A DNA stretch of 64,000 bases from Pseudomonadota bacterium (GTDB lineage Bacteria > Desulfobacterota > Desulfobacteria > Desulfobacterales > Desulfolunaceae): NCBI GenBank assembly GCA_018818835.1, contig JAHIRD010000141.1:4608-68607 (forward strand), written 5' to 3'. Positions 34,208 to 47,782 of this stretch are shown piece after piece. Under the pieces are notes generated by a model. That model was not told where the DNA came from. It made no database searches and saw only the letters and a list, made by a program, of their open reading frames with translations. The translations under genes were made by a program, and so were the position numbers. The first letter of the stretch is position 1. Every line of letters begins with the position of its first letter.

Positions 34208-37200
34208 TTATAGTGGTTTATGAATTTCCCGGTGCTTCACGATAAAGTAAATGGCCGGGATAATGACCAGTGTTAAAATGGTGGAGGAAATCAGTCCCCC
34301 CACCATGGGTGCTGCAATCCGTTTCATGATTTCCGAACCTGTTTCGCTTCCCCACATGACGGGCAGAAGACCGATGAGGGTGGTTGAAACGGTCATCAGT
34401 TTGGGCCGGACCCGATCCACGGCTCCTTCCATGATGCCCTGGTGCAGGTCCTTATCGTTTGTCATGGTGCCTTCGGCTTTTTTCCGGTCAAAGACATCGT
34501 CCAGATAAACCAGCATGACCACGCCGGTTTCCGATGCCAGGCCGGCCAGGGCGATGAACCCCACCACCACGGCCACGGATATATGGTAATCCAAAAGATA
34601 GATCAGCCAGATTCCCCCCACCAGGGCAAAGGGCAGGCTGGCCATGACAATGACGGCCTCGGTGATGTTTTGAAAGTGAAGGTATAAAAGGATAAAAATA
34701 ATCACCAGGGTGGCCGGAACGATCAGGTTCAGGGTTTTTCTGGCTTTTTCCATGTATTCGAACTGGCCGGACCAGACCATGGAATAGCCGGGGGGCAAGG
34801 GAACTTTTTGATCGATCAGGACTTTGGCCTTGTGCACATAGGACCCCAGGTCCACGCCTTTGATATCCACATAGACCCAGGCTGTTCTCCTGGCGTTTTC
34901 ACTTTTGATTCCGGCAGGCCCTTTGTGGATGGACAGATCCGCCAGTTGGGCCAGGGGAATCTGGGCTCCTGTGGGGCTTAAGACCAGGACCCGTTTCAGG
35001 GCATCGAGATTGTCCCTGAGTTCCCGGTTGTAGCGGAGGCTCACCGGATAACGTTCCAGGCCTTCCACGGTGTAGGTCACATTGGTCCCTCCAATGGCGG
35101 TCATGATCACCTCTTCCACATCGGCAATGGTCAGGCCATATCGGGCAATGGCCTCCCTTTGGATGGTGAAATCCAGATAATTGCCGCCGGTGATCCGTTC
35201 GGAAAAGGCGGAAAGGGTTCCGGGCACAGCCTTGATTTCAGCCTCGACTTTTTCACCCAGGCGGGTGAGCACATCAAGATCAGGTCCCATGATTTTGATG
35301 CCCACCGGGGTTTTGATGCCGGTGGCCAGCATGTCGATGCGGGTCTTGATGGGCATGGTCCAGGCATTGGTGACACCGGGAAACATGATGGCGCTGTTCA
35401 GATCATCAATCAGTTCGCCTATGGTGATGTGCCGCTCAAGGGGAAGCACGAGGGACAGGGGTTTTTTAAGAAAACCGGGCCAGGTTTCAAAAAATCGGGG
35501 AATGGCTTTTTTTCGCCATTCATGAACAATCCGACCTTTTTTCATCTCGGGGAAAACAAGAGAAAGGGGCGCTTTGAGCCAGTCCGGCCAGCTGGGAAAA
35601 AACCGTTTAACCGGAATCATTTCATACTCCACCTGGGGACGGAGCATGATGGTGGTCTCGATCATGGAAAGGGGCGCGGGGTCCGTGGGTGTTTCGGCCC
35701 GTCCTATTTTTCCCAGGGTATGGTGGACTTCGGGAAAGCTCTGGATGATTTTGTCGGTCTGCTGCAATAGTTCCCGTGCCTTGGTGATGGAAATCCCAGG
35801 CAGGGTGGTGGGCATATACAAAAGATCCCCTTCGTTCAAGGGAGGCATGAACTCACTGCCCAGTTTTGACAGGGGGAAAAGGCTCAGGACCATGAGGGCC
35901 AGGGCAACGGCCACGGTGGTTTTTCGAAAACGTAAGACCAGATGGATCACCGGGGTGTAGATACGGATAAAAAACCGGCTGATGGGGTTGGCAGATTCGT
36001 CCAGGATTTTCTGGTGCAGCATCAATGAAAAAATCATGATGGCTACCACAAGGGCAAGGATCAGGCTCCAGTCGGGCAGGGCCACTCCAAGAAAACCTAA
36101 CATCAGCACCAGAGCCACCGGCAGTGTTGAAAATAAAAACAGGTACCGCTTTTTTGCTTTTTGGCCCGGCAACTGTCCAAGGCCTTCTTCCCGGATAAAA
36201 AAGGTCATCAAAACCGGGATCACGGTGATGGCCAGCACAGAAGACGCGGCCATGGCAAAGGTCTTGGTAAAGGCCAGGGGCTTGAACAGACGGCCGGACT
36301 GTTCTTGGAGGGTGAATACGGGCAGAAAGGACACGGTGATGATCAACAAGCTGTAAAACAGGGCGGGCCCCACTTCCTTGGACGCCTTGATAATCAGGTC
36401 CGTATGATTCAGCTTATCGGGGTTGTTCTTGATGTGTTTGTGGGCGTTTTCAACCAGCACCACCGAGGCGTCCACCATGACCCCGATGGCAATGGCAATG
36501 CCACCCAGACTCATGATATTGGCGTTGATATTCATGGCATACATGATGATCAGCGAGATCAGGATACCCACGGGCAAGGTGAAAATCGCCACAAAGGCCG
36601 ACCTGAAATGGAGCAGGAAAAGAACGCAGATCAGGGCCACCACAGTCATTTCTTCCACGAGTTTGCTCGAAAGGGTGGAGACGGCCCTGTGGATCAGGTC
36701 CGAACGATCGTAGCCCATCTCAATGGTCACGCCATCTGGAAGCCCTTTTTCAAGGTCCTTTAATTTTGTTTTGACCCGGTCAATGGTTTTAAGGGCATTT
36801 TCCCCGAATCGCATCAGGACGATGCCGCCGACAATTTCCCCTTCCCCGTTCCATTCCAGGATGCCCCTCCGAAGCTCGGGGCCTGTATGGATGGATGCTA
36901 CATTTTTCAGTAAGATGGGCGTTCCTGCTTTATCGACTCCCAGGGCAATATTTTCAAGGTCATGAATGGATTTTATATAACCCAGGCCCCGGACCATGAA
37001 TTCGGTTTCGGCCATTTCCACCAGCTTGCCGCCCACATCGTTGTTGGACCGTTTGATGGCCTCTTTGACTTTGGGAATGGATAGATTATAGGCCCAGAGG
37101 CGGTTGGGGTCCACCTCCACCTGGTACTGTTTGACAAAGCCACCGATGCTGGCTACTTCGGACACACCGGGCACGGCTGTCAGTTCATAGCGAAGGTACC

Positions 37201-37684
37201 AGTCCTGGATGCTTCGCAGCTGCTGAAGATCATGCTTGCCCGACGAGTCTTTCAGAACATATTCATAAACCCAGCCCACACCGGTGGCATCGGGTCCCAA
37301 ACTTGGTGTGACGCCCTGGGGCAGCCGCTGTGAGACCCCGTTCAGATATTCAAGAACCCTGGACCGTGCCCAGTAAAGATCCGTGCCGTCTTCAAAAATG
37401 ATGTACACAAAGGACAGGCCGAAAAAGGAGTATCCACGAACCACCTTGGCATAGGGTACGCTGAGCATGGCTGTGGTCAGAGGGTAGGTGACCTGATCCT
37501 CCACAACCTGGGGGGCCTGACCCGGATAATCGGCGGAGATGATCACCTGGACATCGGACAGATCCGGGATGGCATCCAGGGGCATGTTTTTCATGGCGAT
37601 AAGACCGCCCGCCACGATGAACACCATGGCCACGATGACCAGGAATCTGTTTTTCACTGACCATTCAATGATATGTTCTATCAT
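34208..37684 (-). CDS. cusA: Cu(I)/Ag(I) RND efflux pump CusA (heavy-metal efflux family) with two insertions
   Basis: Full-length collinearity with CusA (MIEHIIEWSVKNRFLV..., GGIAIAIGVMVDASVVLVEN, AIPLAQLADL...). 1158 aa, against about 1047 aa in E. coli. Confidence 0.9.
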   Translation of the reverse strand: MIEHIIEWSVKNRFLVIVAMVFIVAGGLIAMKNMPLDAIPDLSDVQVIISADYPGQAPQVVEDQVTYPLTTAMLSVPYAKVVRGYSFFGLSFVYIIFEDGTDLYWARSRVLEYLNGVSQRLPQGVTPSLGPDATGVGWVYEYVLKDSSGKHDLQQLRSIQDWYLRYELTAVPGVSEVASIGGFVKQYQVEVDPNRLWAYNLSIPKVKEAIKRSNNDVGGKLVEMAETEFMVRGLGYIKSIHDLENIALGVDKAGTPILLKNVASIHTGPELRRGILEWNGEGEIVGGIVLMRFGENALKTIDRVKTKLKDLEKGLPDGVTIEMGYDRSDLIHRAVSTLSSKLVEEMTVVALICVLFLLHFRSAFVAIFTLPVGILISLIIMYAMNINANIMSLGGIAIAIGVMVDASVVLVENAHKHIKNNPDKLNHTDLIIKASKEVGPALFYSLLIITVSFLPVFTLQEQSGRLFKPLAFTKTFAMAASSVLAITVIPVLMTFFIREEGLGQLPGQKAKKRYLFLFSTLPVALVLMLGFLGVALPDWSLILALVVAIMIFSLMLHQKILDESANPISRFFIRIYTPVIHLVLRFRKTTVAVALALMVLSLFPLSKLGSEFMPPLNEGDLLYMPTTLPGISITKARELLQQTDKIIQSFPEVHHTLGKIGRAETPTDPAPLSMIETTIMLRPQVEYEMIPVKRFFPSWPDWLKAPLSLVFPEMKKGRIVHEWRKKAIPRFFETWPGFLKKPLSLVLPLERHITIGELIDDLNSAIMFPGVTNAWTMPIKTRIDMLATGIKTPVGIKIMGPDLDVLTRLGEKVEAEIKAVPGTLSAFSERITGGNYLDFTIQREAIARYGLTIADVEEVIMTAIGGTNVTYTVEGLERYPVSLRYNRELRDNLDALKRVLVLSPTGAQIPLAQLADLSIHKGPAGIKSENARRTAWVYVDIKGVDLGSYVHKAKVLIDQKVPLPPGYSMVWSGQFEYMEKARKTLNLIVPATLVIIFILLYLHFQNITEAVIVMASLPFALVGGIWLIYLLDYHISVAVVVGFIALAGLASETGVVMLVYLDDVFDRKKAEGTMTNDKDLHQGIMEGAVDRVRPKLMTVSTTLIGLLPVMWGSETGSEIMKRIAAPMVGGLISSTILTLVIIPAIYFIVKHREIHKPL

Positions 37685-37696
37685 AGTTTTGTCCTT

Positions 37697-39127
37697 TTAA
37701 TTCATATCCTTGAAAAAATCATCGGCTTCGGGTTCTGTTTTCACAGGCTCCGGCATTTTCTCAGGTTCGGTCATTTTCCGGAGGGATTCCTTGAGTTTGG
37801 ATTCCGAATCCAGAAGGAACTGTCCGGATACCACCACCCGGTCTCCGGGGACAATGCCGCTGATAATGTGAATGGTGCCATGGTCCATGGCAACTCCTGG
37901 CACGACGCGTCTTGGACTGAATTTACCATTACCCCTGTCAACGAAGACCAGGTTCGTCTCGCCCGAGCGCAGGACCGCTTCCTCGGGAATGATGGTTCCG
38001 GTCTCACCTTTCTGTGTGCGAATGCTCACATCCGTGAACATGTCGGGCTTTAACATCTGGTCGGCATTTTCGAATTCAAGGCGGACCACCACATCCCGGG
38101 TTTTTTGTTGAAGATAAGGATAGATATAGGTCACTTTTCCCCTAAAAATTTTACCGGGATGGTAAGGCAGGGTGATTTCGGCGTCTTGCCCCAGTTTGAC
38201 CAGATCAAGCTCGTATTCATAGATGTGGGCTTCCACCCAGATGTTGGACAGATCGGAAATGCTGTAAACCTTGGTGCCCGCATTGAAGTAACTCCCTTCC
38301 ACAAGGGGTTTGTCCATGACAATACCGTCAAGGGGCGAGTAGATGGTCAAGCTTGTCTTGGGGGAATTGCGTTTTTCCATATCCCTGATTTCATTGAGGG
38401 GAATGTCATAATTCAGGAGTCGTTGACGGATGGCGGAAAGCATGGACCCGGAGTTATGACTCCGGTACACGTTCAGGTATTCTTCCTGGGCTGAAATCAG
38501 CTCGGGGGAATAGACGGTGAACAGGGCCTGGCCCTTGGATACGCTCTGGCCCGTGACGTTGGCCATCAGTTTTTCAACCCAGCCGCTGAACCTGGGATTG
38601 ATCTGGGCGGTGCGCGTTTCGTCAACGGTCACATGGCCGTATGTTCGTATGGTATGGACCAGGGGGCCGCTTTGGGCGACTTCCACGCGGATACCCATGG
38701 ATTGCTGGGTCACGGGATCAATGCGGATATCAACACCCCCTTTGAGTTCATCCTCGTAAACAGGGACAAGATCCATGCCCATGGCACTTTTTCCGGGCTG
38801 TTTGTAGATTTCCCGGGGGTTCATGGGAGCTTTCCAGTACGCTATTTTTCGCTCACCTGTTGCCTCGGTGGGTGCGTCCTTTGTCTTGGGGACCAGGGTC
38901 ATGCCGCAAATGGGGCAGTTTCCCGGTTCTTTCTGGATGACAAAGGGATGCATGCTGCAGGTGTAAAGGGTTTCTGCCCCATGGTCATGATTGGTTTCCG
39001 TTTCCTGAACGCCCCTGCTTCCGGACATGGTGATGTAAAAAAAAGCGAAACACAGGGCAGAGGTGATCAGAGCCGTTACGAGTACGACCCGGGCCGGGAA
39101 TCCTTGCTTAGGGTTGAGGTTTGTCAT
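37697..39127 (-). CDS. cusB: Periplasmic adaptor (membrane fusion protein) CusB with an N-terminal Cys-rich metal-binding motif
   Basis: YTCSMHPFVIQKEPGNCPICGMTLV (heavy-metal-binding domain) followed by barrel-sandwich/lipoyl HlyD-type regions. Overlaps cusC by 4 nt. Confidence 0.85.
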   Translation of the reverse strand: MTNLNPKQGFPARVVLVTALITSALCFAFFYITMSGSRGVQETETNHDHGAETLYTCSMHPFVIQKEPGNCPICGMTLVPKTKDAPTEATGERKIAYWKAPMNPREIYKQPGKSAMGMDLVPVYEDELKGGVDIRIDPVTQQSMGIRVEVAQSGPLVHTIRTYGHVTVDETRTAQINPRFSGWVEKLMANVTGQSVSKGQALFTVYSPELISAQEEYLNVYRSHNSGSMLSAIRQRLLNYDIPLNEIRDMEKRNSPKTSLTIYSPLDGIVMDKPLVEGSYFNAGTKVYSISDLSNIWVEAHIYEYELDLVKLGQDAEITLPYHPGKIFRGKVTYIYPYLQQKTRDVVVRLEFENADQMLKPDMFTDVSIRTQKGETGTIIPEEAVLRSGETNLVFVDRGNGKFSPRRVVPGVAMDHGTIHIISGIVPGDRVVVSGQFLLDSESKLKESLRKMTEPEKMPEPVKTEPEADDFFKDMN

Positions 39128-40437
39128 GGCATGGTCCTCGTCAAGGTGTTGGGGGTTAACGGCAGGCCCACAAGCTCATTGAGCTCCGCCCGCTTTTTTT
39201 TAATGAGAAAAAGGAAATTTGTTGCCTCAAGCTCCAGGGTCAATGCTTTGATTTGGGAAGAAATCAGGGTGCTGAATTCGCTTTTCCCCACCTCATAATC
39301 TGATTGAGCAGAACGGGCAATGTCCTTTGCTGTGGGTATCAGTTTGTTTGTGTAAAGGGTGTACCGCCTAATTGTTTCCCGGATATCGGTGGCCAGACGA
39401 TCCACATCGTGGGGGATTCGGCTCTGGAGGTTCCGAAGCTTTAGTGTTGCGGATTGCACAGCCGATTCCTGGGCCGCCAGATTTTTATCCTGCCTGCTAT
39501 GCTTCCACAAGGGAATGGACAGGCCTGCGGACAAGGACACGAAATCCGTTCGGGTTTTGCCCATGGGATCATCGTCCCTCTGGCCGTAGGTGAGCCTCAT
39601 ATCCACATCCGGATAATAGTCCTTCTGGGCAAGCATCCGCTGGGCTTTGTTTTTTTCAATATCCAGCTTTAATACGGCAAGTTCCGGGTTGTTTTCAAGG
39701 GCCTGCTCCACAAGATCCGGGATGTGTGGCAGACTCTCTGAAACACCGGGTGTATCATTATGGGCCACCGGTAAGTAATTGCTCCGGTTCAAGAGGCCGT
39801 TGATGCGGTCTTCGATCTGACGGTATGCGTTTTCAAGCATAATCCGTTCATCCTCACGCTTGTCCAGCTCCATGCGGGCCATCAGGATGTCCTGGCGGTT
39901 TCCTTTTCCCGAGGTGTATCGGGTTTCTGCCACCTGGATCAGTTTTTGGACCAGCTCGTAGATGTTTCGGTTCAGGACAAGGCTTTGTCCAATAAAACCG
40001 AGATCATAGTAGTTTTCGGTAAGGGTTCGGATCATGGATAGTTTTTTGGATCGGAGTTGATGTTCGAGCTTTTTCGCATCAAAGTCAACCGATTGAGATT
40101 TCAGTGCCCGTTTTCCCGGCCAGGGAAATTTCTGGCCCACAAATATCTGCTTCTGAGTCATGGCTTCATCCCGGAAACTTAACGAATCAATGGGGACGTT
40201 TGACAGGGAAAATCCAATCTGGGGATCGGTCAAGGCACCTTCAAAAGAGGCCTTTGACCTGAGGCTGTCAATGGCCGACTCCATGGCCTTTATGTCCTGG
40301 TTTTTTTCAAAGGCTTCCTTGATAAGCAGAGAAAGGCCTGAACCACGCCCAGGGGTTTCCATGGCAAAGGACCCCATGGGTTGCGAAAGGGAGACAACCA
40401 GAGTGAAGGCAATAAAGAATGGGTAATAAATATTCAT
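39124..40437 (-). CDS. cusC: TolC-family outer-membrane factor CusC
   Basis: Signal peptide, then two tandem alpha-helical/coiled repeats typical of the OEP family. First gene of a three-gene RND operon. Confidence 0.8.
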   Translation of the reverse strand: MNIYYPFFIAFTLVVSLSQPMGSFAMETPGRGSGLSLLIKEAFEKNQDIKAMESAIDSLRSKASFEGALTDPQIGFSLSNVPIDSLSFRDEAMTQKQIFVGQKFPWPGKRALKSQSVDFDAKKLEHQLRSKKLSMIRTLTENYYDLGFIGQSLVLNRNIYELVQKLIQVAETRYTSGKGNRQDILMARMELDKREDERIMLENAYRQIEDRINGLLNRSNYLPVAHNDTPGVSESLPHIPDLVEQALENNPELAVLKLDIEKNKAQRMLAQKDYYPDVDMRLTYGQRDDDPMGKTRTDFVSLSAGLSIPLWKHSRQDKNLAAQESAVQSATLKLRNLQSRIPHDVDRLATDIRETIRRYTLYTNKLIPTAKDIARSAQSDYEVGKSEFSTLISSQIKALTLELEATNFLFLIKKKRAELNELVGLPLTPNTLTRTMP

Positions 40438-40889: not shown

Positions 40890-41639
40890 ATGGAGTTTGA
40901 CGACTTGTTTGGTCTTGAGGAGAAAATCATTCGTCATGGGGAAAAAATCATGAGCTTGGACTCACCCCAAGGGACCATGTGGAAGGATGAGTATGCAACA
41001 CTCCTGAAACACTATGAAAAAATGTATAAGCAGTTGACCCGATTGATCAAGATTAACGACAGGCAGCAGAGTAAACTTTCCCAGGCCAACACCATCCTTG
41101 AAAAACACTCCAAATACGATGAGCTGACCGGGATATGCAACCGGCGAATGTTCAATGAGATGTACGAACGTGAGTGGCGTCGATGTATCCGTTATAAACA
41201 AACCATGTCAATTCTGATATTTGATATCGATCATTTCAAGCAGGTTAATGATGAATACGGTCACCAGGCAGGGGATGAGATTCTGAAAATAACGGCCAAA
41301 AAAATTGATAAGGTGGCGCGACGTGTCGGGGATCTGGCCGCGCGATATGGCGGAGAAGAGTTTATCCTTCTTCTCCCGGACACTGAGAAAATGGGTGCCT
41401 TTAAGATGGCCGAAGAGATCCGCAAGGATATTTCGAAAATACGGTTCCCCTATGAGGACAAGACCATTGGCATTACCATCAGTGCCGGGCTTGCCTTCAT
41501 GGTTCCTGATATGGGCAATGATCCTGAAAAATTGATCCGGAGATCTGACGATGCCTTGTACATGGCCAAACGGACGGGTCGAAATCGCGTGTGTATCTTT
41601 GAGGACATTCGGATGGAGGGGGCGGATCATGCTGGATAA
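40890..41639 (+). CDS. Diguanylate cyclase (GGDEF) with an N-terminal helical module and intact I-site
   Basis: DIDHFKQVNDEYGHQAGDEIL, and RVGD-LAARY-GGEEF (RxxD I-site five residues before GGEEF). No TM segment and no sensor domain other than an N-terminal module of about 75 aa. Confidence 0.9.
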   Translation: MEFDDLFGLEEKIIRHGEKIMSLDSPQGTMWKDEYATLLKHYEKMYKQLTRLIKINDRQQSKLSQANTILEKHSKYDELTGICNRRMFNEMYEREWRRCIRYKQTMSILIFDIDHFKQVNDEYGHQAGDEILKITAKKIDKVARRVGDLAARYGGEEFILLLPDTEKMGAFKMAEEIRKDISKIRFPYEDKTIGITISAGLAFMVPDMGNDPEKLIRRSDDALYMAKRTGRNRVCIFEDIRMEGADHAG

Positions 41640-42189
41640 ACTCTATGGTATGGTGGAATATTTCAAAGACCATGAGCTGGTTTTCTGGTATAATGGACCC
41701 GTATCCCAGGTTCTTGTGGTGGAGATAGGAGACATCATCAAGAAAAGCATTGATACGTCATCGGATAAAAAGGTCATCACCAGGATATTCGGCATCCTGG
41801 TGGAACAGATGCAGAACATTATTAAATATTCAGTTCAAAAAACACCACGTATGGACAAAGTAAACCGTTTTTTCATGAGTTCCGGCCTGATTGCCGTAGG
41901 CATTGAAAATGAATTCTATTCGGTGGTCAGTGGAAATCCAGTCAAAAACAAGGATATTAAACGCATTAGTGAGCGTTTGGACAGAATTATCGCCATGGAC
42001 CGGGAGGGCCTGAAAGACTATTACAAAACCATGAGGAGACAGGAGCCAGACGAACAAAGCCTTGGAGCAGGTCTGGGTTTTATCGAGATGGCAAAAAAAG
42101 CCAGCATGCCCCTGGAATACAGATTTACAGCCATTGATGAGAATCATAGTTTTTTTTCCATGAAAGCGCTTGTTAAGATGGAGCCATGA
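41629..42189 (+). CDS. SiaB-like (GHKL-type) partner-switch protein kinase
   Basis: ATG at 41629 after GGAGGGGG, overlapping the GGDEF stop. LVFWYNGPVSQVLVVEIGDIIKK and GAGLGFIEMAKKASMPLEYRF resemble the SiaB family blocks F-x-GP-x-S and GAGLGL...P-L-x-Y-x-F (from memory). Confidence 0.6.
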   Translation: MLDKLYGMVEYFKDHELVFWYNGPVSQVLVVEIGDIIKKSIDTSSDKKVITRIFGILVEQMQNIIKYSVQKTPRMDKVNRFFMSSGLIAVGIENEFYSVVSGNPVKNKDIKRISERLDRIIAMDREGLKDYYKTMRRQEPDEQSLGAGLGFIEMAKKASMPLEYRFTAIDENHSFFSMKALVKMEP

Positions 42190-42569
42190 TGGATGATCTG
42201 ATCATAAACGCTACCCCGTTCACACCTGAAATCCGATTTTATTACTCGAAAGATTGCCTTGAAATCTCAGGGGAATCCTATCCCGAAAACACGTCGGAAT
42301 TTTACGGCCCGGTGTTTCGGAGTCTTTCCACCTACCTGGACGGTATCATTGACCGAACCGTGACCGTAATCGTGCGTATGAAATATTTTAACAGTAGCTC
42401 CTCTAAAATATTGATCAATCTGTTTGATCAGCTTGACGATGCCTGCGAAAAGGGAAATGATATCACCGTAAACTGGTTTTATAGAAACGGCGACGATGAT
42501 TCACGTGAATTTGGCGAAGAATTCTCAGAAGATCTTCAGTACCTGCATTTCAATATCGTGCCTGAATGA
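42186..42569 (+). CDS. SiaC-like DUF1987 protein (partner-switch component)
   Basis: ATGA overlap with the upstream gene. TPFTPEIRFYYSKDCLEISGESYPENTSEFYGPV...KYFNSSSSKILINLF...ITVNWFY matches the DUF1987 pattern tP.v.f......l.isG.S.PEn...FY.P...yfNTsSsK (from memory). Confidence 0.75.
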   Translation: MMDDLIINATPFTPEIRFYYSKDCLEISGESYPENTSEFYGPVFRSLSTYLDGIIDRTVTVIVRMKYFNSSSSKILINLFDQLDDACEKGNDITVNWFYRNGDDDSREFGEEFSEDLQYLHFNIVPE

Positions 42570-42627
42570 GAGGGGTTAAGAATACACAGGGGGTTAAGAT
42601 CTCCTGAATGTATCCTTATGAAAAAAT

Positions 42628-44439
42628 ATGAGTGACGATCTACTATTTAGTCTTGAAGAAACGATAATCACTGAGGCAGAAGACGTCTTGAAACACATGT
42701 CTTCTTCGGACGCCTCTTTGAATAAGCATTACGCTAAGCTCCTAAAACAATACAAGAAAATTTTCAAAAATCATAAAAAACTCATCAAGATCAATGATAT
42801 TCAACAGAAAAAACTCAATGAAGTGATCAAGGAGGTGGAGCAGGCCAAAGAAGCCGCTGAAACAGCGAATAAATCCAAAAGCAGCTTTCTTGCCAACATG
42901 AGCCATGAGATCCGGACACCCATGAATGGCATTATTGGAATGACTGGCCTTCTCCTTGAAACACCCCTTAACGTGGAACAGATCGATTATGCCCGGACGA
43001 TTCAGTTCAGCGCGGATTCCCTACTGACCATAGTCAACGATATCCTTGATTTTTCTAAAATTGAAGCCAAAAAACTTGAACTGGAAATGACTGATTTTGA
43101 TCTCCGGCAATCCATGGAGGATGTGGTGGAGCTCATCTCTGTCAACGCCCATGAAAAAGAGTTGGAGCTTATTTTGAACATCGCCGTTGACGTGCCTTGC
43201 TTTTTAATTGGTGACCCGGGACGATTGCGTCAAATCCTGTTCAATCTTGCAGGAAATGCCGTGAAGTTCACTGAAAAAGGTGAGGTGGCCATCAGGATAT
43301 CCACGGAAGATGATGATGGAAAAACCGTTAGGCTAAGATTTGAGGTGTCGGATACCGGTATGGGAATTCCTGAAAATCGTTTGAATCGGCTTTTCAAATC
43401 CTTTTCCCAGGTGGACGAATCCACCACTCGAAAATACGGCGGTACAGGTCTTGGGCTTGCCATATCAAAAGAACTGTCCGAAATGATGGGTGGGGCAATC
43501 GGGATTATTCCGAATCCGGGTCAGGGTGTGACCTTCTGGTTCACTGCTGTGTTTGAAAAACAGGCCCAGGGGCAGGAATGTCTACCGGTGATTCCCTCGT
43601 CCGTTTCCGGGAAAAAGATTCTGGCCGTGGAAGATAATGAGACCAATCGCCTGGTCCTGGAGGGATATCTCAAATCATGGGGCTGCAGGTGTATTTCGGT
43701 CCCGGGTGCAAAACAGGCGCTTTCGATGATGAAAGAGGCCCTGGCCGCAGGAGATCCCTTCCATCTGGCTGTGATCGATCACATGATGCCTGGTATGGAT
43801 GGCGAAATGCTTGGGAAAATGATAAAGGCGGATCCCTCCTTGTCCGGTACCCGGTTGGTGATTCTGGGATCTCGTGGTTTGAGGGGCGATGCTGATGCCT
43901 TGGAAAAGGCCGGATTTGATCGGGTCATTACCAAACCAGTGCGCCAAAATCAGCTTCTGGAATGCATATCGCTCCTTCTCGGGGATGTTCCAGGCACACA
44001 GGTTGACAGTAGTATCCTCCCTGGGGAGGATAGAGTCATGGGCAGAATCAGGCCCAAACGGAAAATGCGAATTCTTCTTGCCGAAGACAACATCGTCAAC
44101 CAGAAACTGGCTTTGGTTCTGTTGAGAAAATTCGGGTTCAATGTCGATGCCGTGGCCAACGGTAAGGAAGCTGTGGAATCCCTGAAAAAAATACCCTACG
44201 ACCTCGTTCTCATGGATGTCCAGATGCCTGAGATGGATGGTTTTGAAGCTACCGGAATCATTCGTGATCCACGTTCAGGGGTCCTTAATAACGAGGTCAT
44301 GATCATCGCCATGACAGCCCATGCCATGAGGGGTGACAGGATGCGGTGTATTGAGGCAGGGATGAACAGCTATGTGTCAAAACCCATTGACCCCCGGACA
44401 CTGATTGACGTGATCCAGGAGGTTTTCCAGGGGGGGTGA
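42628..44439 (+). CDS. Cytoplasmic hybrid histidine kinase with two receiver domains
   Basis: H-box [18 protein letters not shown]. HATPase blocks [17 protein letters not shown] and [11 protein letters not shown]. Two REC domains ([13 protein letters not shown]...DHMMPGMDG and [13 protein letters not shown]...[10 protein letters not shown]). Confidence 0.9.
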
Positions 44440-44449
44440 GCAGGTGTTA

Positions 44450-47400
44450 TCACGCCGGAATAGAATAGCTTGTAATATCAATCATGGTTCGATCATCAAT
44501 GGGCATGTCAAATTTTAGGTGAAGGGAAAAATGAGTTCCTTTTTGTTCTCTGGCACTGATGATGGTCCCCACCCCAGCCACTTCGATGGGTTTGCTCCGG
44601 GTCAGTATGGCGATGGCCATGTTGAGCTTTCGGCCAAGCAGAAGACGAGCCGTTTCCTTTTTCGTTGTCTTGATCATGAATGAAATCCCCCCGATGGAAA
44701 AATCCAGGAGTTTGCCCTTAAATGGCTTTCCAATGGGCTTTTCGTGTGTATCCAGAAGCTGAACCAGAGTTTTCCCGTTTAGATTCAGTCGTTTTTGCTG
44801 GCGACGATCAAGTCCTGTTTTCGTGACCAGGGTGTTAATCCCATCCCCCAGAGCACAATAATCCATCAGTTTTTTTTCCAGTTCGGGATGTTTGAAACAC
44901 AGATTTTTCAAAGTGTCCCGATCCAGATAACTCACTTTGACCTGGGACAGGGTGATAAGGGACACCGTGGACACCGAGATTGCGAAAAAGGTGTCGTCAC
45001 CGGCAATATCTCCGGCACCTAACATTTTTAAAAAAAACTCGTTGTCCCCATGGGTATAGACAATTTTCAGCTGACCCCGGTTGATGAAATAGAGCCTTGC
45101 GTTTTTTTGATGCTGGGTGATGATGGTTTCATCCGAGGCGTATTCGGCTACTTTTAAGCTGTAAAAAAGATCATTGGCTTCTTCGTTGTTCAGCCGTTCA
45201 TACAGATTCCCCCAGATATTCATGTAATCGTTGATAATGGCATTGTTTTTTTCTTCTTCGATCACATCGCCGGTTTTCACAATTTCATTGAGGGCCATGG
45301 GATCCACTTCAAAAAGTTTTTCCCGGAGTTCTTCGGCTTTGGTGAAATTTTTCTCCCTGGCAAATTTGACAGTCATTCGGTAAAGGAGCCGGACGGCTTC
45401 AGCCGTGTTTTTTTGTCTGACATACTCATCCACCAGTGCCTCAAGGCGCGCGGGATCCGCAGTGAGCAGATCTTCGGTTTTTGCGTCGCCCCGGGTACGA
45501 CTTTTTTTCGTGTTTGAGTCGGTTTTGTTTTTTTCCGCCTCATCTTTTGCCCCTTTCGTGGGCAGACTCTGTAGGTATTTTAATGTCAGGGATGCAGACT
45601 GCCGTAATTCCGGTCCATAACTATTGATTCCCAGGATTCCTTTCTGGGTGACAATGGAGCTGAGTGTGGGGATGGCTTTTTTGGAGCCGATTCGTTTCAA
45701 GGCAGCGCATATGGTCAGATCAAGCTCATTTTTCGCTTCAGCAGACTCTGCTGCTTTTGCCTTGAGGACCTGTGTCAGGGGAAAGACACCCTCGTCACTT
45801 TCAGTTTTTCCAATCAGATCAGCGGCCAGACGTTTGATGCTGTCATCCGGAATGGCAAGGGCTTGGATAAAAAATTTGACTCTTTCCTTGCCTCCGATAT
45901 CAAAGGCACAGTTCAGAGCCGCTTTGGGGACCTTCTCATTTTTATGTTTCAAAAGAGGTCTGAGTATGTCCAAGTGCTCTTCGGAACCCATGTCGCTGAG
46001 AAGTTTGATGAGGTTCCTCATATAGAACCATGAACTACCTTGCTGGAGGCGTAGCACAATGGCGGGCAGGGCCGGTGTCCCGATTTCTGTGAGAGCATTG
46101 ATGGTGCGCACCCGTTGGGACATGTCTTCACTGGTTCTAAGCAGGTCCAGAAGGGGGATAACCGAGATTTCGCTCAATCGAATTAGCGTGTAATAGGCGT
46201 TTTTACCTTCATTTTTTTCATTATCACGAAATTCAGAGAACACCAGATCAAAGGTCGCTTCATTGGCAATGTCGCTAAGAATCCTTGCTGCGATGTCTTT
46301 GATTTCCGTGTTTTTTCTGAGACGCCCATCGGTGATGAAGCTGAATGTTTCAAGGATGGTGTTGGCCTCGGAGAATTGATAGTTGTGGATGAGCTGCCGG
46401 GTATGGCTCTGTAGCATCTTGCAGGCCGCTTTAAAGTTGAAGGTGGCCTCGGTTTCAAATTTAATCCAGAGGTTAAGCTTGTGGGCGAGTTTGTTGATTT
46501 CATCCTGTTTGTTTTCGGAAATGAACGTCTCCATGATGGAAAGGAGAGCTGAAGACGCTAAGGACCTGATCTTCAAGGATTCATTGAGAAGACCATCGGC
46601 TATTCTGTTGATAAGGTTATGGGCCGAATCTACCTTGCCCGAATTGAACCAGAATCCTATCCGACCTGAAATACTCTCCATGATAAGGGGGTCGGCCAAA
46701 GACATAAAATCTCCCTGGAGGATTTTGTTTATTCCTTTCTGCTGATGGACCTTGTCCAGGGCGATCCTTTTTTTTTCTGTCAGGATTTTTTGTTTGATTT
46801 CTTCCCGGAGTACTCGGGTTTTCTGATTTTTTTTAAGCAGGCTCATGACGCTTGCAAACTGAGCGCTTTCTTCGGTCGTCAGTTGTTTGTCTGCATAGGC
46901 ATGGTTTTCGTTGATTCGGTTGATTTCGGAGAAAAAATCCACATACTGATCATCGGAAAGGGTTTTGACCAAGGTGTCAAAGAGGTTGCCAGCCTGGTTT
47001 TTCGCCATGACAACCGTGAGGAGTTCCTTATCGTTGTCAGACAAAGCACGGGTGATGCTGGAGGACACCCGGTCCCAGTTTTCCCGGGGTGTGGACCGGC
47101 CAAAGGCTTGAACCATTTTGCTGATGGTGTCGGGAAGAAGACTGTCAGCAAGGTTGATCCCCTGGCGCTTGATCAGTTGGATGCCTGTCTTGAAAAATTC
47201 ATTCACCCATTGGGAATCCGACGATTTTTCCCCAATACGCAGAAAATCGGTTTCCATGATACGCCGTTCACCCAGAAATGATTTGATCAGATCAATGTCT
47301 GTGCTGTCAAGCAAGGATGATTGAATTTGAGCGGTTTCAGGAATAAACAGGGAAGGGGAGATGGAGATGGAGCTTAAACCAGCCCCTGCCGCTATTTTTT

Positions 47401-47782
47401 GAATGCCACCCTCCAGATCGACCTCATCGCTGTTTTTGCTCAGGATATACAGCAAGTTTCTGAATTCAGTCGGGCTCGTTTCTTTTTTAAGAATGATGCT
47501 TTTAATCCTGAGATCGGACAAGATGTTCCTGAACGACGCCACCTGAGGAAACTGCTGGTGTTTGAAGCTTAATGGCTCTCCTGAAATCAGAAGGCTCTTT
47601 TCCGATTCTGCGATGAGAAGGGGCGTGTTCGACGTAATGGCATTTTGAATTCCGTTAAAGGCCTTATCGATGGAATTTGCGATCAGTGCACTTGATGGAG
47701 GATAAAGTCGAATATTATTTATGGCTGCAATCATGGCTGCAAGAATGTTAATAATTTTATCCATTGGAATCGAATTGGGCAT
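44450..47782 (-). CDS. 1110-aa HEAT-repeat / cNMP-binding / PilZ multidomain protein
   Basis: The helical N-terminal 700 aa contain HEAT-like units (RVRTINALTEIGTPALPAIV, ICAALKRIGSKKAIPTL). A cNMP-binding-like segment follows (LYFINRGQLKIVY...GAGDIAGDD). The C-terminal PilZ has RRQQKRL (RxxxR) and DFSIGGISF (DxSxxG). Confidence 0.75.
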   Translation of the reverse strand: MPNSIPMDKIINILAAMIAAINNIRLYPPSSALIANSIDKAFNGIQNAITSNTPLLIAESEKSLLISGEPLSFKHQQFPQVASFRNILSDLRIKSIILKKETSPTEFRNLLYILSKNSDEVDLEGGIQKIAAGAGLSSISISPSLFIPETAQIQSSLLDSTDIDLIKSFLGERRIMETDFLRIGEKSSDSQWVNEFFKTGIQLIKRQGINLADSLLPDTISKMVQAFGRSTPRENWDRVSSSITRALSDNDKELLTVVMAKNQAGNLFDTLVKTLSDDQYVDFFSEINRINENHAYADKQLTTEESAQFASVMSLLKKNQKTRVLREEIKQKILTEKKRIALDKVHQQKGINKILQGDFMSLADPLIMESISGRIGFWFNSGKVDSAHNLINRIADGLLNESLKIRSLASSALLSIMETFISENKQDEINKLAHKLNLWIKFETEATFNFKAACKMLQSHTRQLIHNYQFSEANTILETFSFITDGRLRKNTEIKDIAARILSDIANEATFDLVFSEFRDNEKNEGKNAYYTLIRLSEISVIPLLDLLRTSEDMSQRVRTINALTEIGTPALPAIVLRLQQGSSWFYMRNLIKLLSDMGSEEHLDILRPLLKHKNEKVPKAALNCAFDIGGKERVKFFIQALAIPDDSIKRLAADLIGKTESDEGVFPLTQVLKAKAAESAEAKNELDLTICAALKRIGSKKAIPTLSSIVTQKGILGINSYGPELRQSASLTLKYLQSLPTKGAKDEAEKNKTDSNTKKSRTRGDAKTEDLLTADPARLEALVDEYVRQKNTAEAVRLLYRMTVKFAREKNFTKAEELREKLFEVDPMALNEIVKTGDVIEEEKNNAIINDYMNIWGNLYERLNNEEANDLFYSLKVAEYASDETIITQHQKNARLYFINRGQLKIVYTHGDNEFFLKMLGAGDIAGDDTFFAISVSTVSLITLSQVKVSYLDRDTLKNLCFKHPELEKKLMDYCALGDGINTLVTKTGLDRRQQKRLNLNGKTLVQLLDTHEKPIGKPFKGKLLDFSIGGISFMIKTTKKETARLLLGRKLNMAIAILTRSKPIEVAGVGTIISAREQKGTHFSLHLKFDMPIDDRTMIDITSYSIPA

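Follow-up and report, generated by a model that had tools for sequence, protein, structure and literature searches.

An N-terminal module shared by a SiaD-like diguanylate cyclase and a hybrid histidine kinase is a probable docking site for the partner-switch protein SiaC

In the SiaABCD system of Pseudomonas aeruginosa, the DUF1987 protein SiaC activates the diguanylate cyclase SiaD via its stalk (PDB 7E6G; Chen et al., 2021, PMC8457831; Poh et al., 2020, PMC7647112). The stalk of SiaD is dimeric and has two conserved motifs to which four SiaC molecules bind; T68 of SiaC inserts between the stalk helices and bonds with S82 and Q86, and D83, K77, V78, R80, I81 and R84 of SiaD also contribute to the binding (PMC8457831). 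Phosphorylation of T68 by SiaB abolishes SiaC's binding to SiaD (PMC8457831). Diguanylate cyclases are also controlled by STAS-type partner switches (viz. HptB-HsbR-HsbA-HsbD in P. aeruginosa and BgrSTUWV-BgrR in Sinorhizobium; PMC8457831), which resemble the locus reported here in that a small phosphorylatable STAS-like protein swaps partners and controls a signalling enzyme. They differ from it in that the phosphoprotein is a true STAS protein rather than a member of DUF1987, and a portable docking module common to several output classes has not been reported for them. For the DUF1987 proteins themselves, an eLife paper has proposed that they modulate 'adjacent proteins' and nothing beyond this, and in the literature that our search could reach, viz. 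that outside subscription journals, DUF1987/SiaC was not tied to histidine kinases or to cyclases besides SiaD, and the module described below was not found.

The present work concerns a locus in a stretch of 64,000 nucleotides that was analysed as a whole (hereafter the window). The locus consists of four tightly packed genes that are read in the same direction (40890-44439, forward strand), and these genes, the N-terminal modules of two of their products and the convergent neighbouring gene are as follows:

40890-41639, forward strand: predicted SiaD-like diguanylate cyclase, 249 aa (Pfam GGDEF, 169 bits, residues 75-233)
40890-41087, forward strand: N-terminal module of the cyclase, aa 1-66 (predicted helix 8-22, loop, helix 30-72)
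41629-42189, forward strand: SiaB-family protein kinase, DUF6272 (PF19788, 142 bits; NF038262 SiaB_fam_kinase, 175.6 bits against a cut-off of 85)
42186-42569, forward strand: SiaC-family phosphoprotein, DUF1987, 127 aa (PF09345, 137.2 bits against a cut-off of 24.5)
42628-44439, forward strand: cytoplasmic hybrid histidine kinase, 603 aa (module, HisKA 84-147, HATPase_c 195-307, two receiver domains)
42628-42825, forward strand: N-terminal module of the hybrid kinase, aa 1-66 (predicted helix 3-23, loop, helix 29-110)
44450-47782, reverse strand: HEAT-repeat/cNMP-binding/PilZ protein, 1110 aa, convergent to the kinase (Pfam)

The start of siaB overlaps the stop of the cyclase gene by 11 nt. 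The cyclase retains both the GGEEF active site and the RxxD I-site, and its longest structural alignment is with 7e6g_A. Its top NCBIfam match is diguan_SiaD (NF038266), with an alignment that reaches into the N-terminus and a score of 191.5 bits against an equivalog cut-off of 290, and we class it from these scores as SiaD-like rather than as a SiaD equivalog. The SiaC protein, which matches the SiaC structures in the PDB (6k4f/6kko/7e6g) at E 6e-16 and scores 91.8 against the NCBIfam SiaC equivalog cut-off of 150, is similarly assigned to the SiaC family but not to the equivalog. Its phospho-loop (YFNSSSS) has Ser at the position of P. aeruginosa Thr68 and keeps the equivalents of N67 and S69. 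In the hybrid kinase (HisKA 75 bits, HATPase_c 102 bits, Response_reg 143 bits in two stretches), the phosphorylatable histidine is His93, within SHEIRTP. The nearest relatives belong to Desulfobacterales, e.g. Desulfatiferula and Desulforapulum, and word-index searches with the N-termini alone retrieved close orthologues and nothing further.

The locus resembles SiaABCD in several respects. It encodes a SiaB kinase and a SiaC with a conserved phospho-loop and stalk-binding surface, its cyclase consists of N-terminal helices followed by GGDEF with an ISD..Q-type motif placed 20 residues ahead of DxLTG, exactly as in SiaD, and SiaA-like PP2C phosphatases are present in the genome. However, the ORF and Pfam scan of 40890-44439 detected no SiaA-type PP2C phosphatase in the operon itself, the phospho-acceptor of SiaC is Ser rather than Thr, both the cyclase and SiaC fall under the NCBIfam equivalog cut-offs, and a second target is indicated by homology here, viz. 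the hybrid histidine kinase carrying the same module as the cyclase. The module also has one clear SiaC-type motif and a conserved extra N-terminal helix, whereas SiaD has two motifs.

The HEAT-repeat/cNMP-binding/PilZ gene is syntenic in the orthologous loci L006-L008 (58-62% identity), and its product may act as a c-di-GMP receptor for the SiaD-like cyclase. On the other side of the operon, a 452-bp intergenic region separates the siaD-like gene from a divergent cusCBA-type heavy-metal efflux operon (34208-40437, reverse strand) encoding an outer-membrane factor, a membrane-fusion protein and a 1158-aa RND pump.

The sequence-only reading of this DNA had proposed that the cyclase and the kinase share a helical module of about 70 aa at their N-termini, which it quoted and which are present in the window as stated. 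Our comparison bears this out: residues 1-66 of the two proteins align gaplessly with 29/66 identities (44%; BLASTP E 5e-12, composition-adjusted), and their Smith-Waterman score of 126 stands against 26.8 +/- 5.1 for shuffled sequences (n=5000, maximum 61), a z-score of 19.5. The interval that was assigned to the module, 42628-42850, covers the kinase copy, and the cyclase copy lies outside it, at 40890-41087. Pfam detects no further sensor domain in either enzyme, as had been claimed; the first residue of GGDEF is 75 and that of HisKA 84, and the N-terminal 70-80 or so residues of each are without a Pfam domain. The genome (6.75 Mb) holds about 24 GGDEF and 89 HisKA/HATPase ORFs (~113 in total). 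When the 100 residues ahead of the catalytic domain were scored for the other 107 GGDEF/HisKA ORFs, no Smith-Waterman score of these linkers exceeded 43, a value at the level of noise. A module HMM run on the whole genome matched two ORFs, the cyclase and the kinase, even at E <= 10, and both of these copies flank SiaB-SiaC.

Run on 1.84 billion representative proteins, a profile made from the two sequences identified 246 clusters at E <= 1e-3, in which the match nearly always covers residues 1-67 of proteins that are 60-940 aa long. Among the best 150 of the 246 clusters, Pfam places HATPase_c in 57 proteins, HisKA in 53, GGDEF in 30, class III adenylate/guanylate cyclase in 15, SpoIIE/PP2C in 6 and the HD-GYP-type HD_5 in 2, and combinations with CheW, Hpt, PAS and GAF also occur. 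Unlike in the SiaABCD system, the module is thus carried more often by histidine kinases (~57/150) than by cyclases (GGDEF, 30). Its consensus is M....LF..EE..I..AE..L.........L...Y..LLK.YKKLF.Q..RL.K.SD.QQ..LN, in which E10 and D57 are invariant and F7, L38, Y42, L52, Q60 and L63 nearly so. The core of the module, Y42-K-K ... Q48 .. R51-L52-x-K/R54-x-[S/N/G]56-D57-x-x-Q60 .. L63-N64, lies on the long helix. No Pfam or NCBIfam model covers the module, the tallies reveal no common N-terminal family, and the kinase module gave no meaningful match to either collection. These profile searches show the module to be a true domain family that is widespread and uncatalogued, and it merits a domain-family entry of its own.

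Some members of the family have unusual architectures. PP2C-type module proteins (6/150 representatives) include one at locus L015 (177-1211) that is encoded directly downstream of siaC, which suggests that via the module SiaC may attract, or control, the phosphatase that acts on it. In genome G166, a protein at locus L024 (3934-5112) has two tandem modules ahead of GGDEF, comparable to the two motifs of SiaD; P0018 was noted together with it. The protein P0078 was considered as a SiaC-module fusion (Rosetta stone) and rejected, as its SiaC C-terminus is frameshifted and its module has a start Met of its own; in all likelihood two adjacent genes were joined by an artefact of assembly or gene calling, and the case counts as adjacency alone.

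The relationship of the module to the stalk of SiaD was evaluated by scanning ten isolated 70-residue modules, free of GGDEF residues, against NCBIfam. For 6 of the 10, including modules from kinases and from a PAS protein, the top or sole match was NF038266 diguan_SiaD (E 1.4e-5 to 1.8e-3), always in the same register, with module position x corresponding to profile position x+20. The module of the window kinase itself did not match the SiaD model at E <= 0.01, and its link to SiaD therefore runs through the family. The E-value of 2.6e-5 that is obtained for the in-register SiaD-stalk match derives in part from the first residues of the GGDEF domain. Against the PDB, the best match of the family profile is SiaD (7e6g_A, E 0.0056), over both SiaC-binding motifs. 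SiaD is also the best natural protein for a kinase-only profile (E 0.012), but a designed coiled coil scores higher, and the support at the PDB level is therefore marginal (E 0.006-0.012). In the common register, module positions correspond to those of SiaD as follows:

Module Y42: SiaD Y68
Module K44: SiaD K70
Module R51: SiaD K77
Module L52: SiaD V78
Module K54: SiaD R80
Module I55: SiaD I81
Module N/S56: SiaD S82
Module D57: SiaD D83
Module Q60: SiaD Q86

K77, V78, R80, S82, D83 and Q86 of SiaD contact T68, N67, S69, E110 and D114 of SiaC (PMC8457831), and the equivalents of S82, D83 and Q86 are N56, D57 and Q60 in both window proteins. The distance of 20 residues from D57 to DxLTG also equals that from D83 to D103 in SiaD. 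The premise of the sequence-only reading that SiaC binds at SiaD's N-terminal stalk agrees with these published contacts, and it is to this place that the module core aligns. Taken as sequence evidence, these results indicate that the module is related to the stalk by which Pseudomonas SiaD binds SiaC, with a core that is homologous in register. The correspondence has its limits in that each module has one clear ISD..Q-type motif against two in P. aeruginosa SiaD, and nothing in the SiaC-SiaD interface as known matches the strongly conserved N-terminal helix (F7, E10, E11).

Conservation is seen on each side of the presumed interface. All 22 of the 22 SiaC proteins encoded beside modules keep the residues that touch the SiaD stalk (Y31, Y65, N67, T/S68, S69, D/E79, E110 and D/E114), and the contact-equivalent positions of the module show equal conservation whether the output is a kinase, a GGDEF protein, a cyclase or a PP2C. 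Paired modules of one operon also share uncommon contact residues, viz. N56/N56 in the window, G56/G56 at L022 and L023, S56/S56 at L021 and L012, and E60/E60 at L021 alone. This sharing would fit adaptation of both modules to a single SiaC; it comes from a small sample, for which recent duplication offers another explanation.

The distribution of the module follows that of SiaC closely. In a phylum sample of 401 genomes, a strong module match is present in 11 and a strong SiaC match in 11, and 10 genomes have both (Fisher p 4.6e-18); the single module-only genome is 79% complete and its match lies 80 nt from a contig end. Seventeen of the 18 strong module matches in these genomes are located <=5.8 kb from siaC on the same contig, 10 of them <=200 bp from it, and the remaining one, which is not near siaC, lies at a contig edge. 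The immediate upstream neighbour of the module gene is mostly siaC, and a module gene is found near 12 of the 15 strong siaC genes. An independent set of 15 loci was obtained from a close alignment of 8 sequences and also spans Rhodospirillales, Aminicenantes, Clostridia and MAGs of Epsilonproteobacteria. In this set siaC lies <=10 kb away in 9 loci, and the 6 module genes that are not beside siaC all come from genomes with SiaC elsewhere. The module is thus found almost solely in genomes with a DUF1987/SiaC gene, usually adjoining that gene, which answers the survey of co-occurrence that the sequence-only reading had called for. The usual gene order is PP2C, siaB, siaC and then the module-output gene, and the outputs beside siaC comprise GGDEF and PAS-GGDEF proteins, hybrid kinases, a class III cyclase (L020) and a PP2C (L015), with an HD-GYP and a GAF protein on either side of siaC at L021. 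Operons with two outputs, module-GGDEF and module-kinase, recur in other arrangements (L022, L023, L021 and L012), and at L022 and L023 the two outputs stand in a different gene order.

Neighbourhood alone cannot single out the partner of the module, because the siaB and PP2C genes travel with siaC. The module could instead dock another product of the cassette, either SiaB or the PP2C phosphatase, or scaffold the whole switch, rather than bind SiaC; most operons have siaB and PP2C genes close to siaC, so that neighbourhood statistics do not separate them, and some of the module proteins are themselves PP2C phosphatases. We consider this unlikely, however, given that the SiaD residues with which the module core aligns are those making contact with SiaC in the crystal, that the stalk-binding surface of SiaC is conserved, and that siaC is in most cases the gene next upstream. 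Docking of SiaB in particular is also opposed by locus L011, where siaC lies immediately upstream of a module-kinase gene and no siaB is present within 10 kb, an arrangement that favours SiaC over SiaB as the partner.

The predicted structures describe how the module is joined to its outputs. In the AlphaFold2 model of the cyclase (pLDDT 84.5), helix 8-22 and a loop are followed by helix 30-72, which runs into GGDEF, and in that of the kinase, helix 3-23 and a loop are followed by one unbroken helix, 29-110, which passes through His93. The module is more than the common docking helix of the sequence-only reading: it is a unit of a helix, a loop and a long helix, the last of which enters the catalytic domain. 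Across the family (P0011-P0160), the spacing between the module Asp and the catalytic site changes almost solely in 7-residue steps, and indels are therefore restricted to whole heptads. Counted from D57, the values on these series are:

To the phospho-His: 22, 29, 36, 43, 50 or 57 residues, in 35/41 kinases
To DxLTG: 20, 27, 34 or 48 residues, in 21/23 short-linker GGDEF proteins
To the FGRYLS motif of the cyclases: 24 residues, in 7/7

Such heptad-phased spacing marks the connection as a rigid coiled coil. It is shared with the S-helix linkers that precede GGDEF, HisKA and cyclase domains, which are likewise parallel coiled coils continuous with the catalytic domain and heptad-constrained in length. 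However, S-helices link to an upstream sensor domain of the same polypeptide, whereas the module is N-terminal with nothing upstream of it, and it has a conserved polar motif of its own and occurs essentially with SiaC only. The same helical, heptad-phased continuity with the output domain would be expected if the module were a homo- or hetero-dimerisation coiled coil that needs no partner protein, either joining the cyclase to the kinase or dimerising each of them, with the proximity of siaC reflecting co-regulation, and the modules of one operon are indeed often each other's closest relatives. Dimerisation, however, explains neither the invariant polar residues D57 and Q60 within a coiled coil, nor their match to residues that contact SiaC, nor the restriction of the module essentially to SiaC-bearing genomes, and we give this explanation little credence.

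The N-terminal helix with F7 and E10, which finds no equivalent in the SiaC-SiaD complex, could be taken as the mark of a small ligand or metabolite sensor that is merely inherited with SiaBC cassettes, but a helical hairpin of 66 residues offers no obvious pocket, the association with SiaC is strict and the homology is to the stalk of SiaD, which makes such a role very improbable. The possibility that the similarity merely reflects the composition of coiled-coil or S-helix linkers and has no specific meaning can be practically dismissed: although the region is helical and rich in K, L and Q, and the designed coiled coil ranks slightly above SiaD with the kinase-only profile, the z-score of 19.5, the noise-level scores of all other GGDEF/kinase linkers in the genome and the restriction of HMM matches to two ORFs lead us to reject it, and the Fisher test of co-occurrence with SiaC also stands against it.

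The explanation that we favour, and consider probable as a whole, is that both N-termini are copies of one portable module for input, in which a short helix and a loop lead to a long helix continuing as a coiled coil into the catalytic domain, and on which SiaC docks, so that one switch would control both the cyclase and the kinase; the binding of SiaC is what we infer from the homology and the co-occurrence described above. The interpretation offered from the sequence alone, in which one switch protein governs c-di-GMP synthesis and a phosphorelay, gains support from the same two lines of evidence. By analogy with SiaC and SiaD, unphosphorylated SiaC would occupy the [S/N]-D-x-x-Q site in the dimeric stalks of cyclase and kinase and would stabilise or re-register their parallel coiled coils, and the resulting state would be passed to GGDEF and DHp, setting their activity. 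Phosphorylation of the loop serine of SiaC by SiaB would release it, and PP2C phosphatases, likely the three SiaA-like 7TMR-DISM ones encoded elsewhere in the genome, would reset the switch. Two outputs, c-di-GMP synthesis and a His-Asp phosphorelay, would in this manner be gated side by side by a single Ser/Thr phospho-switch.

The genome contains one other SiaB/SiaC pair, on contig C78 (G000:C78), with identities to the window pair of 42% for SiaB and 59% for SiaC. At this locus (L003, 498-8235), three tandem paralogous genes for 7TMR-DISM (DISMED2 + 7TM) PP2C proteins precede the pair. The catalytic part of these phosphatases resembles SiaA, and no target gene was found beside the pair within L003. 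The C78 phosphatases are the likely source of the activity that is absent from the window operon. Since the genome holds the two module proteins alone, we infer that both SiaC paralogues plausibly converge on them, and the window switch may take its input from three 7TMR-DISM sensor phosphatases as well as from two SiaB/SiaC pairs.

What appears from these comparisons to be new is a further target that is not a cyclase but bears the cyclase's docking module and, in more general terms, a portable module that is found mostly on histidine kinases. SiaC/DUF1987 proteins are widespread, and one target, SiaD of P. aeruginosa, is understood so far; the module provides a sequence signature by which SiaC targets may be predicted from sequence alone, and it indicates that the commonest of them are histidine kinases rather than cyclases. 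If SiaC binds the module, phosphorylation in the partner switch would feed directly into two-component, cAMP and c-di-GMP signalling, an explanation would be available for many 'sensor-less' cytoplasmic kinases and cyclases, and a compact, heptad-phased input module that can be tested and reused in experiments would be at hand. On balance, we lean towards regarding the module as a general portable 'SiaC receptor', through which a STAS-like protein phosphorylated on Ser/Thr would act directly on histidine kinases, cAMP/cGMP cyclases, HD-GYP phosphodiesterases, PP2Cs and diguanylate cyclases in several phyla, with one switch driving both c-di-GMP synthesis and a His-Asp phosphorelay in this organism. 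If this is true, it would represent a direct and previously unrecognised junction between partner-switch and two-component signalling.
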